From Candidatus Kuenenia stuttgartensis (GTDB taxonomy: Bacteria; Planctomycetota; Planctomycetia; Pirellulales; UBA1268), in assembly GCA_945890755.1 (NCBI GenBank), contig CAMDDA010000001.1, positions 7,656 through 71,655 of the forward strand: a DNA stretch of 64,000 bases. Reading direction: 5' to 3'. A program made the translations under genes and the position numbers. Shown here piece by piece: positions 49,660 through 55,265 of the stretch. The notes beneath the pieces are model-generated. The model saw nothing but the letters and a program-made list of their open reading frames with translations. It did no database searches and was not told the DNA's origin. Position 1 is the first letter of the stretch; every line of letters starts with the position of its first letter.

Positions 49660-51705
49660 TCACGTGTTGGAGCGGACCAGATCCCGCTGCTCGAAACAGA
49701 ACCAGGCGAGGAGGCCGAGCACGACCGGGGCGAGGAGGCCAACGCGGAGGACGCACTCGAGGACGGTCCAGACGCTCACGTTCATGCCGGTCGCGACAGC
49801 CGTGACCGCATCGTAGCGATCGAACGACGGGATCACCTTCACGAATAGCTCGCCGACCACCGCCATGATCACCTTGAAGGCCTCCCAGTACTCTCCCTTT
49901 TTCAAGAAGTCATAGAAGGAATAATATCGAAGTTCAGCCATGTCTCTCACCGTGGCGCTTGCACTGTCCATGCCGGTATAGAGTTCGAGCGAGTCTCCCA
50001 CGAACCCGCTGCCGAAGGCTGAGACAAAAATCATCAAGCTCAGGAGCACGGCCATCGGAAAGCCGAGAAACGTTGCCGACGTTATGGCGACCGCCGCGAT
50101 CATCGCCAGTTTGAGCCAGACGACGAACAAGCACTTCAGATAGTTTTGGCCGAAAGAACCGATCCGCTCGAGGAGTTCGAGCCCCTTGCCGGGTACGAGG
50201 GCGATCGTCGTAGGTCGCGTCGCTCCAGGGAGTACGAGGTTCTTGTTTGCGATCGTCAGCCGCAGCACGCCCTTGTCGTCTATGGCTTCCGTCGGAATGT
50301 CGATCGTGTGCGTGGTTTGTCCGGCAAGGGTGTAGGGGAGGTGTTCGCCATCACGATACGGGAATGGCCTGCCGTTCACCCACAGTGCGAAGCTTACGTC
50401 GGCCCGGTCATAGCCGGATCCCTCGCCGTAGGGCCGGATACGGAAATGCACGATTGGAGACGTCTTTTTGGCGTGCCCGAGGCCGGAGAAGACATACTCG
50501 CTCACCTTATCGGGGGTGATCGTGTGCCATTTGCGAAAGTACTGTTCACGGATGTTCTGTCGGGTGCCTTGCCGATCTCTTGTGAACGCGTCGGGCAAGT
50601 CCTTCTCCAACTCATCGATCACCGTTTCCACTTCCCGCGCGTACGCGTCGCCGCTGGGATGTGTGGGCCGCACACTTTGTCGGGCCGTTAGCACCTGTTC
50701 GTCGACCGCATAGCGGTCGCCCTGGCTCGTGGGCTCGGACAGGGCCAAAAGCCGCGTGAACGAATAGATCCCGATTCCGGCGACGACCACGAGCAGCGCA
50801 TTCACGGCCACGAGGCCGGCCCATTTGCCCAGCAGATACTCAGGGCGGCCGAGCGGCTTGGTGAGCGTCATGTGGATGCGGTTGGAGTCGATGTCACCTG
50901 AGAGGCTGCCGCAGCCGAGAAACACGTTCAGGAGGCCTAGTAGAAGCGTCGTCGAGCCGATTGCCCACGTGAGCAGAAACTGCACCCGGTATTCAAGTCG
51001 CTCGCCTGAGTCGAGCAGCAAGGGGAGGAGTGGCAGCGAGAGCACGAGCAAGATCAGGAGCACGAGCGCCGCCCGCATCCGGATCGCCTCGTCCACCACC
51101 GTACGGGCCACGGCCGCCCAGCCGCTGCCCGAGAGGATCGCTCGCAAGAGCGACAGACCTGCAAGAAATGCCGCGGTGATCGCGACGACGGCGCCGATCG
51201 TGATCGCCGCCGCCGAGAGCCCCTGCCGGGCAAGAAACCAGACGAGGAACCCTGTGCCAGCCAAGCCTCCCACGGCAGTGGCGAGCCAGCGGTGCTGGGG
51301 CGCTGCCTTGAACGCCCGCCAGAAGAGGAGCCCGGGTGCAGCGGCGGCGGCGAGTTGCAGCACGACGCCCAGCGGAAGCGACAGCTTTTGAGCGGCGAGT
51401 TCCGCGAGGCCGCTGCCGCCGGCAAGCAGTGCTGAGAGCAAGGCGGCGCGGGTGGCCGGGCCGACGTCCGTCGCGAGGCGCGACCCAAGCAGCGTCGAAA
51501 CGCCGAAAAACGTCCAGCCGATCGCGGCGACGAGGCCGGCCAGTCGAACGGCCGTGGCGACTGTCGGTGCGGCCTGCGCGTCGAGTAGCCAGCCGGCGGC
51601 CACCGAGGCGGCGATGATCCCGGCGAGCACGCCGGCAAAAAACACCGCCGGCCGCCATGAGCTGCCGCCGTCAAGCGCGCCTGAAGTGTGTCGGTTCGCT
51701 GCCAT
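49660..51705 (-). CDS. large ABC-2-type transporter permease-like membrane protein with extracytoplasmic domain
   Basis: ATG at 51705, 4 nt after the ATPase stop. Multiple N-terminal TM helices. ABC-2 signature ...SNRIHMTLTKPLGRPEYLLGKW. Soluble insert of about 230 aa, then C-terminal TM helices. Confidence 0.6.
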   Translation of the reverse strand: MAANRHTSGALDGGSSWRPAVFFAGVLAGIIAASVAAGWLLDAQAAPTVATAVRLAGLVAAIGWTFFGVSTLLGSRLATDVGPATRAALLSALLAGGSGLAELAAQKLSLPLGVVLQLAAAAAPGLLFWRAFKAAPQHRWLATAVGGLAGTGFLVWFLARQGLSAAAITIGAVVAITAAFLAGLSLLRAILSGSGWAAVARTVVDEAIRMRAALVLLILLVLSLPLLPLLLDSGERLEYRVQFLLTWAIGSTTLLLGLLNVFLGCGSLSGDIDSNRIHMTLTKPLGRPEYLLGKWAGLVAVNALLVVVAGIGIYSFTRLLALSEPTSQGDRYAVDEQVLTARQSVRPTHPSGDAYAREVETVIDELEKDLPDAFTRDRQGTRQNIREQYFRKWHTITPDKVSEYVFSGLGHAKKTSPIVHFRIRPYGEGSGYDRADVSFALWVNGRPFPYRDGEHLPYTLAGQTTHTIDIPTEAIDDKGVLRLTIANKNLVLPGATRPTTIALVPGKGLELLERIGSFGQNYLKCLFVVWLKLAMIAAVAITSATFLGFPMAVLLSLMIFVSAFGSGFVGDSLELYTGMDSASATVRDMAELRYYSFYDFLKKGEYWEAFKVIMAVVGELFVKVIPSFDRYDAVTAVATGMNVSVWTVLECVLRVGLLAPVVLGLLAWFCFEQRDLVRSNT

Positions 51706-51709
51706 CGGT

Positions 51710-52939
51710 TCACCGCCGGGTGAGGGAGGCGAGCACGTCGTCGTCGGGATCGTCGTCGGGACCGGTGTCGGCCTCGACCGCCCGCGGAGCCTGTGCTGGG
51801 TGAGCTGCTCCTGGTGGGGGCGTCGGGCGGGCGACGAGTTCGGCAAGGGTGTCATCTTCACGGGTTGCGGCCGGCGCGGTCGTAGCTGGCGCAGGCTGCG
51901 GGGCGGCAGCCTTGGCGGCGAGCGAGTCCAGGATCTCAACGCCGTCGGCCTCGGTATCGCCGGCCACTTCGGTAGCACCCGCACGGAGGAAGTCGGCGAT
52001 CTGGCCGCCGCTCCGGGCGCCGCTCGTGTGCGTGCCTTCCTTGCGGGCGGTATCCACGATCTCGAGGAAGAGCGATTCGAGCCGCCGCCGCGGCTGTTCG
52101 ACGCTGCGCAGACCGAGGCCCCTCTTGGCGAGCACCGCCTGAATCTCGGCCACCGCATCTGCCGGTAGCCGGTCGGTCTGAAGGTTGGTCAGTTCCTGCT
52201 GCTCGAGCAGTTCGCCACAGGTGCCCTCGGCCCGCACCTTGCCGCCGAACATGATCGCCACGCGTTCGCAAAGGTCTTCGACGTCGGAAAGAAGATGCGT
52301 GCAGAGGAGAATCGTCTTACCCCGCTCGGCAAGCTTCTCGATCACGTCCTTGATCTGCCGCGCGCCCACCGGATCCATGCCACTCGTCGGCTCGTCGAGG
52401 ATCAAAAGCTGCGGGTCGTTGATCAGAGTCTGGGCGAGTCCGACCCGCCGTTGCATGCCTTTGGAAAACTCCCCTACGGGCCGGTGCTCGACCGCCTCGA
52501 GGCCCACCATCTCCAGGAGCTTGCTCACCCGCTCGCGGCGGATCGGTGCGGGAATCCGGAACAGCCGGCCGTAGTAGTCGAGCGTCTCGCGGGCGGAGAG
52601 GAACCGGTAGAGATAGCTTTCCTCCGGCAGGTAGCCGATCTCCTTCTTCGTATCCACGTGGCGGGGCCGCTTGCCCATCACGGCGATCCGGCCGGCCGTC
52701 GGGGTGAGCAGGCCGAGGAGCATCTTGATCGTGGTGCTCTTGCCCGAGCCGTTCGGGCCGAGCAGGCCGCACACCTGCCCGCGGCGAACCTCCAGATCGA
52801 CGCCGTCCACTGCGCGGACCCGCGGTCGCATCCAGAAGTCGCGAAAGATCTTCGTGACCCCGACGCACTTGATGTCCACGGGTCGTGAGTCGTCCGCCTG
52901 AGGAAAATAGGGACGGGAGCTATTTTTCTCTGCAATCAT
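51710..52939 (-). CDS. ABC transporter ATP-binding protein with acidic disordered C-terminal tail
   Basis: Walker A GPNGSGKST, signature FSKGMQRR, Walker B LLILDEPTSG, H-loop CTHLL. The tail of about 130 aa is rich in A/P/D/E. Confidence 0.9.
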   Translation of the reverse strand: MIAEKNSSRPYFPQADDSRPVDIKCVGVTKIFRDFWMRPRVRAVDGVDLEVRRGQVCGLLGPNGSGKSTTIKMLLGLLTPTAGRIAVMGKRPRHVDTKKEIGYLPEESYLYRFLSARETLDYYGRLFRIPAPIRRERVSKLLEMVGLEAVEHRPVGEFSKGMQRRVGLAQTLINDPQLLILDEPTSGMDPVGARQIKDVIEKLAERGKTILLCTHLLSDVEDLCERVAIMFGGKVRAEGTCGELLEQQELTNLQTDRLPADAVAEIQAVLAKRGLGLRSVEQPRRRLESLFLEIVDTARKEGTHTSGARSGGQIADFLRAGATEVAGDTEADGVEILDSLAAKAAAPQPAPATTAPAATREDDTLAELVARPTPPPGAAHPAQAPRAVEADTGPDDDPDDDVLASLTRR

Positions 52940-52987
52940 CGTGCGCTGCCTTCCGTGTGGGAAAAATAGCTCCCGTCCCTATTTTCC
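52902..52987. repeat. perfect 27-bp inverted repeat with 32-nt spacer spanning the SPFH-gene stop and ABC-ATPase start
   Basis: GGAAAATAGGGACGGGAGCTATTTTTC (52902-52928) is the exact reverse complement of 52961-52987. The spacer holds GGAAGG and ATG 52939. The right arm holds stop TAG (52979-52981). Each arm also self-folds (AAAATAG-N9-CTATTTT). Confidence 0.95.
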
Positions 52988-54292
52988 GGTCTGCAGCTGG
53001 CGGGCCCGCTGCATCTCCTTCTGCTCAGTCTTCAGGTTCTTGAGCTGCTCCCGCTGCTTCATCTTCTGGATTTCGGGATCACGATTGAGTTGGAGCTGAA
53101 GCTGGCCCGGGACGGTGTAGAACGTCTCCACGTCGCCGGTGAGGATCTGCTCGCGAGCATCCTCCCACAGCCGTGAGAGAATGATCCGCGGATTTTGCCG
53201 GAACTGCGGCAGGAGTCGCTCGAACATTTCCCGCTCCGATTTCACCCGTTCAACGACCTGGGTGCGATATGTGTTGGCCGCATTGATCACCTTCGCGGCC
53301 TCGCCACCGACCATCGCGCTCTCCACCTTGAGTTCAGCGAACGCCTGGTCGATCTGTGCCTCCGCTTCGGCTGCCTCGGCGTCAGTGCCCGCCTCCACGG
53401 CCTGTTCGTAATTGGTCACGAGGGCCACGAGCTTTTCGGCTGCCTCTCCGGCGGCCTCGGCCAGAATCCGCGTGCGATCCTGCTGGGCCGCCACGATCCG
53501 CTGCGAACGATCGGCCTCGGCGGTGGTCACGTCGTCGAAGCTCTTTACCACGGCCATCGGCGCCGTCACCTGGTCGAGATTGAGCTGGTCGATCTTCAGG
53601 CCCGTCTTCATCTCGTCGAGCCGTCGCTGGGCGATGCCGATCGCGAGCTCGCGGTTCACGACCCCCTTGAGGAAATCTTCAGCGGGCAGTTGCGCCGTCG
53701 CCTGCACGATCCCCTGTTGGATCGCGCACCGCACGATCTCTTCGCCGAGCGCGGGCTTGCCGACGTTGGTGATGTAGTCCTCCGGGTCGGCTACGCGGTA
53801 GGTGAGCGACCAGCGGGCGTGGGCGATGTTGAAGTCGCCCGTGAGGAGCGAGCCGTCCTTGATTGGATTCAGAGGCCTGGCCTGGCCCGACCGGAACGAT
53901 TCCTTCGAATCACCGCCGCCGGTGATCTCGTACCAGAACTCACGGTCGAGATCGATGGTCGTGGGCCGCGTATCAACTTTGATCACCTGCTCGATCGGGA
54001 ACGGCGCCGCGAGATACGTGCCCCGCTCGAGTACCCGCTGCCCGGGTGCGCCCACGTAGTCGCCGAACCGCAGCCGAAGGGCCACTTCGTTGGAGCCCAC
54101 GCTGAACGTGCCGCTCAGGCAGTAGGCCACGAGCAGGCCGAACATGGCGAACTTGAGAATCCCGAAGCTCACCTTGAGAGCCTCGGCGAGCGACTGCTGC
54201 GCCGGATCGAAGACGTCACCCACATCCTCGGCCTGCGCCGGGGGCGGGGCGGACTGCGGCGGGGTGAGTTCGTTGATCGTGGGGTCGCTCAT
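52979..54292 (-). CDS. SPFH/band-7 protein (HflK-like)
   Basis: N-terminal TM helix (FAMFGLLVAYCLSG), an SPFH core (EVALRLRFGDYVG...) and a long coiled-coil C-terminus. Confidence 0.75.
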   Translation of the reverse strand: MSDPTINELTPPQSAPPPAQAEDVGDVFDPAQQSLAEALKVSFGILKFAMFGLLVAYCLSGTFSVGSNEVALRLRFGDYVGAPGQRVLERGTYLAAPFPIEQVIKVDTRPTTIDLDREFWYEITGGGDSKESFRSGQARPLNPIKDGSLLTGDFNIAHARWSLTYRVADPEDYITNVGKPALGEEIVRCAIQQGIVQATAQLPAEDFLKGVVNRELAIGIAQRRLDEMKTGLKIDQLNLDQVTAPMAVVKSFDDVTTAEADRSQRIVAAQQDRTRILAEAAGEAAEKLVALVTNYEQAVEAGTDAEAAEAEAQIDQAFAELKVESAMVGGEAAKVINAANTYRTQVVERVKSEREMFERLLPQFRQNPRIILSRLWEDAREQILTGDVETFYTVPGQLQLQLNRDPEIQKMKQREQLKNLKTEQKEMQRARQLQTGK

Positions 54293-55253: not shown

Positions 55254-55265
55254 GTCGTTGCCGTT

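Follow-up and report, generated by a model that had tools for sequence, protein, structure and literature searches.

Repetitive extragenic palindromic (REP) elements, and the inverted REP doublets termed REPINs, are described together with their REP-associated tyrosine transposases (RAYTs, TnpArep) in E. coli and Pseudomonas (Bertels & Rainey 2011, PMC3116915; Di Nocera et al. 2013, PMC3733652; Quentin et al. 2018, PMC6006769). Head-to-head REP dimers predominate, and intragenic REPs are found at protein termini (Di Nocera et al., PMC3733652). An in-frame palindromic repeat within a coding gene is also known from the Rickettsia palindromic elements (RPE) and the intragenic REPs of Opitutus terrae (summarised in PMC3733652). 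Here we describe a perfect palindrome at an operon junction in a 64-kb stretch of planctomycete DNA, hereafter the window (contig CAMDDA010000001.1, positions 7,656 to 71,655, deposited as Candidatus Kuenenia stuttgartensis; the lineage is probably Pirellulales). The palindrome connects a gene for an SPFH protein with a gene for an ABC-transporter ATPase, and we conclude, with a probability of about 0.8, that its 86 nt constitute a REPIN-like doublet of two inverted REP units belonging to a Planctomycetota REP family. The enzymes of the RAYT-like HUH/Y1 class recognise and cut REP hairpins in single-stranded DNA. Intercistronic REPs can stabilise mRNA, as in the malE-malF type, and REPs near stop codons affect upstream translation. 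In the coat and replicase genes of RNA phages, hairpins that sequester the ribosome-binding site (RBS) enforce translational coupling.

Repeat finding across the window returns two arms of 27 nt (52902-52928 and 52961-52987), complementary at 27 of 27 positions (100%) and separated by a 32-nt spacer, as stated in the initial annotation. This is the top inverted repeat of the 64 kb by far, all other pairs being at most 94% complementary. The 27-mer has no further match in the window even when three mismatches are allowed (expected 0, from 100 shuffles), and a covariance model likewise finds no second copy there, as had been noted by eye. The junction genes and their mRNA are on the minus strand; the upstream gene is the third of three consecutive SPFH genes, and the ATPase gene is followed by one for an ABC-2 membrane protein. 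The anatomy originally outlined is correct: one arm holds a stop codon, the loop has the RBS and ATG, the second arm is translated, and both arms are self-complementary. The parts of the junction are as follows.

52961 to 52987, minus strand: 5′ arm on the mRNA, putative sense REP unit GGAAAATAG-GGACGGGAG-CTATTTTTC, whose first 9 nt are the last two codons of the SPFH gene and its TAG (52981-52979); covariance model 45.2 bits, E 2.7e-7.
52929 to 52960, minus strand: spacer and loop of the long hairpin, 32 nt with CCACAC, a Shine-Dalgarno (SD)-like GGAAGG (52954-52949), the ATG (52939-52937) and ATPase codons 2-4; the SD-ATGAT block aligns with the empty-allele junction.
52902 to 52928, minus strand: 3′ arm on the mRNA, putative antisense REP unit GAAAAATAG-CTCCCGTCC-CTATTTTCC, translated, within a 30-nt in-frame insertion (~52898-52927); covariance model 49.4 bits, E 2.9e-8.
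52955 to 52978, minus strand: the extra 24 nt of the filled allele directly 3′ of the TAG, GGACGGGAGCTATTTTTC plus CCACAC, missing from empty alleles by alignment.
52979 to 54292, minus strand: upstream gene, a 437-aa SPFH/Band_7 (HflK-like) protein, with its stop inside the REP stem.
51710 to 52939, minus strand: downstream gene, the ABC-transporter ATPase, with the ABC_tran domain at residues 45-186 and a variable N-terminal extension that includes 10 putatively REP-derived codons.

On the mRNA, the 5′ arm (52987-52961) reads GGA AAA TAG GGACGGGAGCTATTTTTC, and the TAG at its positions 7-9 is the stop that ends the SPFH open reading frame (ORF). The 3′ arm (52928-52902) starts at +12 counted from the A of the AUG and extends from the third base of codon 4 into codon 13, as far as its second base, encoding the peptide (E)KNSSRPYF(P). 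Each arm also contains the sub-palindrome AAAATAG-N9-CTATTTT, and both are AT-rich against surroundings of ~65% GC. The TAG and the ATG share a frame in the window, 42 nt apart. Since the spacer is 33 nt in two orthologous junctions (L056 and L015; loci in related genomes are given L numbers), the shared frame is a coincidence, and a fusion by stop-codon readthrough or a PYLIS-like signal was rejected.

The arms belong to a dispersed family of hairpins with the consensus unit AAATAG-GGACGGGAG-CTATTT, in which an A-rich/T-rich stem encloses a conserved 9-nt loop. An exact search with the 21-nt core AAATAGGGACGGGAGCTATTT, using one genome per species, gives matches in 46 DNA stretches from about a dozen metagenome-assembled genomes (MAGs). 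There are 33 matches in one Tepidisphaeraceae MAG, 14 in one Tepidisphaerales MAG, and 1-3 each in MAGs whose labels, as deposited, are Pirellulales, Planctomycetia, Planctomycetaceae, Phycisphaerales, Kuenenia and Acidobacteria (two MAGs with the last label). Single copies, inverted pairs and tandem copies are all found. Short dispersed hairpins, often arranged as head-to-head inverted doublets that can fold into one long hairpin, are a feature shared with REP/RAYT systems, and the window itself contributes one doublet in 64 kb. The core-bearing contigs labelled Kuenenia are L005, L010 and L024, and those labelled Acidobacteria are L006 and L014; the GC-rich flanks of the "Kuenenia" contigs seem atypical, and mis-binning is possible, which bears on the apparent spread across phyla.

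Alignment of 83 distinct hairpin copies, selected for at least six contiguous pairs, shows an essentially invariant loop (GGACGGGAG) and a stem whose variation is compensated. Stem variants include AAACAG/CTGTTT, AAACCG/CGGTTT and AATTAG/CTAATT, some of them within one genome, and the stem is often lengthened to 9-13 bp by unrelated sequences. In the named structure 78% of cells are paired, compared with 72.8% in shuffles; 100 cells carry double changes, compared with 55 in shuffles (0 of 500 shuffles reach 100), and sliding the register lowers pairing to 47-55%. The inner-stem statistic is partly circular because the copies were chosen for at least six contiguous pairs; it is the compensated stem variants that provide the real evidence for the stem. 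G-T pairs (92) exceed A-C pairs (67) on the sense strand, indicating that the hairpin is best formed on the GGGACGGGAG strand.

These patterns also bear on another reading, in which AAATAG and CTATTT are the half-sites of a palindromic operator bound by a dimeric DNA-binding protein. The dyad symmetry and the conservation of the half-sites would suit such an operator, but the half-sites change jointly within one genome (AAACCG/CGGTTT beside AAATAG/CTATTT, L002), the outer stem is extended by unrelated sequences, the conserved centre is asymmetric, and G-T exceeds A-C on the sense strand. Together these features point to a folded single strand, and we consider an operator barely credible. An integron attC site and a CsrA-binding loop were likewise considered and set aside with the operator, for want of their defining motifs or because stems covary within one genome. 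Rfam contains no family of this kind; in the window it gives no match at gathering score, and a search at an E-value threshold returns only sub-threshold matches to generic miRNA hairpins. A full-text literature search for the loop sequence found nothing relevant. A scan of viral contigs for the core gave 0 matches, and thus no evidence for a phage vehicle.

Unsupervised clustering of the long ORFs of the 46 loci, made with no prior expectation, yielded one recurrent ORF family lying directly beside hairpins in four different MAGs. The family matches Pfam Y1_Tnp (E 1e-7 to 1e-11), and its sole NCBIfam match is REP_Tyr_transpos ("REP-associated tyrosine transposase", 47-61 bits). It has the motifs NHWH (HUH) and RYVERNA/P (Y-x3-N). 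In the classification of Quentin et al. 2018 (PMC6006769), a Y-x3-N(P) context is what defines class 2, that of TnpArep/RAYT. A profile built from 34 relatives aligns with the entire catalytic domain of E. coli TnpArep (4ER8) at E 1.4e-8, compared with only 0.05 for enzymes of the IS200/IS605 type. The protein family has >7,900 relatives, annotated only as "transposase", and most of its clusters occur on one contig each.

The arrangement of hairpins around these genes is recurrent. Where the hairpins are abundant in a genome, the gene they flank is present in single copy, as a domesticated transposase. In L009, L023 and L062, sense hairpins lie upstream of the Y1 gene and antisense hairpins downstream; L027 has hairpin pairs on both sides of the gene, and in L017 sense copies flank it on either side. 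The relatives P0119 (59% identical, L059) and P0109 (58% identical, L060), and the paralogues beside P0109, have the same architecture with other hairpins, namely GAAAAGG-TGTCAGGAA-CCTTTTC and GAAAAGGGGACATTCTACTTTTTC. On the sequences compared, this change of hairpin type with transposase lineage represents cognate REP/RAYT co-variation. Two further likenesses to REP/RAYT systems are the low-copy Y1/HUH transposase, which has the class-2 Y-x3-N(P) motif and lies between cognate hairpins, and the presence of different hairpins beside different transposase relatives; such a flanked gene is found in related genomes only, and the window itself, unlike the reference systems, shows no RAYT. The planctomycete HUH motif also departs from the reference, being HWH. 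At L059:9950-12260 and L060:9950-13900, two to three paralogous Y1/RAYT-like genes stand side by side, each with its own hairpin type (GAAAAGGTGTCAGGAACCTTTTC or GAAAAGGGGACATTCTACTTTTTC), unlike the GGGACGGGAG type.

Orthologous junctions show how the doublet sits in the operon. The set (n = 12) comprises eleven junctions, including the window, from a metagenome search with the SPFH protein, plus L015 from a Pirellulales MAG.

Intact doublet: window, L047, L056 and L015.
Decayed doublet, with uncompensated changes (6 of 54 and 19 of 54 arm positions): L051 and L052.
Empty junction: L048, L049, L050, L053, L054 and L057.

The empty junctions read GGAAAATAG-(c)gcaGGGAGGAncgac-ATGAT[CT]-nCG-CAG-GCG, and in a more distant relative the upstream gene ends in GGG AAA TAA. 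Compared with the empty alleles, filled alleles have 24 nt more after the TAG and 30 nt more (ten codons, in frame) after ATPase codons 3-4. The empty alleles keep the GGAAAATAG stop and the two codons before it, as well as the SD and the Met-Ile start, so these signals are native and the element donated neither. The suggestion in the initial annotation that the repeat is the footprint of a small inserted palindromic element was the closest of its three readings, since the hairpins are dispersed, REP-type and polymorphic for presence at the junction; the kind of element required correction, and the idea that it had supplied both stop and start is contradicted by the empty alleles.

The start of the ATPase at ATG 52939, as first annotated, is upheld by the conservation of SD-ATGAT[TC] in 12 of 12 orthologous junctions. 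A downstream start at a GTG near 52880, raised at that time as a possibility that would leave the stem untranslated, was rejected: four relatives have GTA or GTC at this codon, most substitutions upstream of this site are synonymous, and every allele conserves the ATG with its SD. Between the window and L015, the sequence downstream of the arm differs mostly by synonymous substitutions, plus a 21-nt indel, and the decayed 3′ arms retain both length and reading frame. Together with the GTA or GTC found in place of the GTG, this indicates that the arm is translated from ATG 52939. An in-frame palindrome that adds a short translated peptide to a tolerant part of a protein recalls the RPE and the Opitutus terrae REPs, and occasional intragenic, in-frame copies at protein termini are likewise shared with REP/RAYT systems. 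Unlike the RPE and Opitutus terrae cases, only one of the two units here is coding, as a 10-codon insert, while its partner is intergenic, across the start codon, and overlaps the upstream stop.

The same alignments bear on a miniature inverted-repeat transposable element (MITE) with 27-bp terminal inverted repeats (TIRs), inserted whole and supplying the upstream stop and the downstream start. A TIR-like architecture and AT-rich arms in a GC-rich context would be expected of such an element. However, the empty alleles already have GGAAAATAG and SD-ATGAT[TC], their SD-ATG block aligns with the filled spacer, and the interior corresponds to the native SD-ATG; no target-site duplication is evident, and the associated enzyme is of the Y1/HUH type rather than a DDE transposase. 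Units also occur singly and in tandem, and the spacers of other family doublets (19-58 nt) are unrelated, which argues against a TIR-type MITE with its own interior. We attach very little weight to a MITE origin.

In some relatives a second doublet of the family is found one junction earlier in the operon, where the 839-aa SPFH gene has its stop and the HflC-like gene its ATG.

55254 to 55265, minus strand: junction of the 839-aa SPFH gene and the HflC-like gene, 12 nt, empty in the window; second doublet in L054 and L058 (intact) and L051 (decayed).

The doublet is intact at L054:2828-2916 and L058:2828-2916, decayed at L051:2867-2954, and missing from the ~95%-identical L053 and from the window. 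Here whole units lie between stop and start, and the start codon is not enclosed; the entire unit is inserted, whereas at the SPFH/ATPase junction the empty alleles already hold GGAAAATAG. That these units leave the start free implies that the "caging" of the start in the window is one result of where units came to lie in a 16-nt junction and is not a design common to every copy.

On the doublet reading, the first unit would follow the native GGA AAA TAG end of the SPFH gene, with which it has 9 nt in common, and the second would have added 30 nt, in frame, behind ATPase codons 3-4, within an N-terminal extension of variable length; the two would flank the native SD-ATG of the ATPase. RAYT-type processing of single-stranded DNA may have created the units or may maintain them. 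The repeat would then exist because of its mobile-element history and not because the operon needs it. In agreement with REPIN-type inverted doublets, the arms are fully complementary (27 + 32 + 27 nt), with a predicted folding energy of -57.5 kcal/mol.

Several observations weigh against this reading. The NCBIfam scores of the Y1 family (47-61 bits) fall below the curated 80-bit equivalog cutoff. The 64-kb window and ~160 kb of contigs from relatives contain neither a RAYT gene nor a further REP copy. The alignment of the hairpin family contains no conserved unpaired 5′ GT[AG]G tag, the ATAG being part of the stem adjoining the loop. The doublets at the two operon junctions have only ~7 nt of spacer in common, which does not favour REPIN copying. 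Neighbour-joining trees of the two flanking genes intermingle filled with empty alleles and do not polarise the change; this pattern implies recombination among lineages or repeated gain and loss. Finally, the first 9 nt of the REP 5′ half-stem coincide with the native gene end in empty alleles.

The family thus differs from classical REPs in several respects. It lacks the unpaired 5′ GTAG (or CGTC) tag, its loop is the most conserved part, and its stem is AT-rich. REPs are usually lineage-specific, whereas the same core is found here across Pirellulales, Tepidisphaerales, Phycisphaerales and contigs labelled Brocadiales or Acidobacteriota. The shared spacer of REPINs is also lacking, spacers differing from doublet to doublet.

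The A-rich 5′ half of the hairpin supplies or overlaps the stop of a long upstream ORF in nine copies out of 81, always at one or other of two fixed offsets. The motif TAG is the stop in six (L006, L015, L023, L037, L044 and the window), and a TGA at -8, in TGAAAATAG, is the stop in three (L007, L026 and L046). Sense units are co-directional with neighbouring coding regions at ~3:1, an indicative ratio from a crude frame-plot classifier. At L009:5075-5084, the stop of the RAYT gene itself lies inside an antisense unit. The frequent position directly after stop codons, together with the A and T runs that flank the stem, could suggest terminators or attenuators of transcription that set the SPFH genes apart from those for the transporter. 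The stem of a single unit is weak (-5.8 kcal/mol) and AU-rich, however, no T-run follows the long helix, and a scan with a terminator consensus finds none on the mRNA strand. A terminator would have no need of the conserved 9-nt loop, and one unit here is inside coding sequence. We regard this function as very unlikely.

The fold of the junction RNA is predicted at -57.5 kcal/mol (z = -5.7), with a 27-bp helix, while the hairpins formed by single arms are weak (-5.8 and -1.7 kcal/mol). Predicted stability of the junction ranges from -66 to -81 kcal/mol in filled alleles, from -51 to -61 in decayed alleles and from -27 to -35 in empty alleles. On the polycistronic mRNA, the two units would pair as a 27-bp helix, with the SD and AUG in the 32-nt loop that it closes. 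Such a helix should impair independent loading of the 30S subunit, and a ribosome terminating at the UAG would unwind most of the 5′ arm and expose the initiation site. The expected outcome would be strict coupling of ATPase translation to SPFH translation; cleavage of the helix by RNase III would be an alternative or additional outcome. Based on the predicted fold, we propose this coupling mechanism tentatively, at somewhat less than even odds.

There are parallels for both aspects of the model. As in the malE-malF type, an intercistronic REP structure sits right at a stop codon of a polycistronic mRNA; unlike there, the predicted helix also encloses the SD and AUG of the next gene, so the effect would be expected on downstream initiation. 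As in the coupling hairpins of RNA phages, the initiation region would be closed by long-range pairing and opened by a ribosome translating or terminating upstream. Here, unlike in the phages, it is two copies of a mobile repeat that would pair with each other, and the coupling is predicted.

Intact arms are frozen in sequence. They show 0 of 54 differences, against 7 of 33 in the spacer for the window and L056 (p = 7e-4) and 8 of 33 for the window and L015 (p = 2e-4), and the flanks diverge by 14-20% in these pairs. An unrelated doublet between convergent genes (L026 and L046) has the same pattern of frozen arms. Because arms are frozen in some lineages and decayed in others, selection or homogenisation appears to act on the unit sequence in some lineages and to have lapsed elsewhere. 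The perfect conservation of the arms in three diverged lineages suggests, on alignment evidence, that either their structure or their sequence has since come under selection there.

This conservation is relevant to the other two readings in the initial annotation, in which the repeat is a dedicated cis-regulatory RNA helix, evolved for the operon, that gates ATPase translation or serves as an RNase III site setting the SPFH:transporter stoichiometry. The predicted helix is indeed very stable and encloses the SD and AUG, and its arms are perfectly conserved in the three lineages while the spacer has diverged by 21-24%. Against a dedicated origin, the same 21-27-nt units are found at unrelated loci and, elsewhere, flanking transposase genes; 6 of 12 orthologous operons do without the repeat, and two show uncompensated decay. 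Moreover, selection on pairing alone would allow G-U pairs and compensatory changes, but it is the sequence itself that is frozen. The operon functions without the doublet in half of the sampled relatives, and regulation is not needed to account for the repeat. We consider a helix evolved for this purpose improbable; as a secondary, exapted role of the REP doublet it is possible, and RNase III cleavage and translational gating are plausible consequences of the predicted 27-bp helix.

Some copies elsewhere show local peculiarities. At L034:4560-4710, stuttered partial copies, with GAAATAGGGACGGGC repeated, precede a full unit, and at L003:2440-2530, L004:5070-5160, L033:1030-1120 and L037:2570-2660, units cap long perfect palindromes of GGATGAA-type repeats. 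These arrangements suggest local amplification or preferred insertion into palindromes. Clusters of two to three hairpin units with the conserved spacer CCTCCGACGTCGCyCTCTTCCG are present at an orthologous NfeD-FloA locus in four MAGs (L007, L010, L024 and L044; e.g. L024:3720-3880). NfeD-FloA is another SPFH-family operon, and the hairpin family therefore recurs beside SPFH genes, which may be chance. In the window, the ATPase has a long Ala/Pro-rich C-terminal tail past the ABC domain, and the 3′ end of its ORF is overlapped by ~450 nt (51710-52158) by an ORF at 49660..52158 on the minus strand with a weak ABC2_membrane_2 match.

The hairpins represent a previously uncatalogued REP/RAYT family of the Planctomycetota. 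The family is unusual in lacking the GTAG tag, in its fixed loop and in having a core common to several orders, and the placement described here is unusual in that the doublet straddles a stop codon, the RBS and start, and the opening codons of the gene that follows. What looked like a bespoke regulatory palindrome can now be assigned to a class, that of REP doublets, and serves as a warning for annotation that a perfect palindrome at an RBS is not always an evolved riboregulator. Repeats of this kind can run across a stop codon and contribute translated codons to a protein N-terminus without harm. The related operons, with intact, decayed and absent doublets at two junctions, amount to a natural experiment in which the cost and benefit of a REP helix at a start codon are measurable, and the fixed loop and wide taxonomic spread make the family a good substrate for studying hairpin recognition by RAYTs.

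A more far-reaching proposal, which we consider rather unlikely, is that several Pirellulales lineages have exapted a nucleotide-perfect helix that ties translation of the ABC ATPase to SPFH termination or marks an RNase III cut, and that the core is recognised by a conserved or horizontally mobile RAYT or by a host factor. Exaptation would explain the 0 of 54 arm changes across ~20% flank divergence. If true, recognition of one core by a conserved or mobile RAYT or a host factor would run counter to the picture of lineage-specific REP/RAYT pairs that co-evolve vertically.

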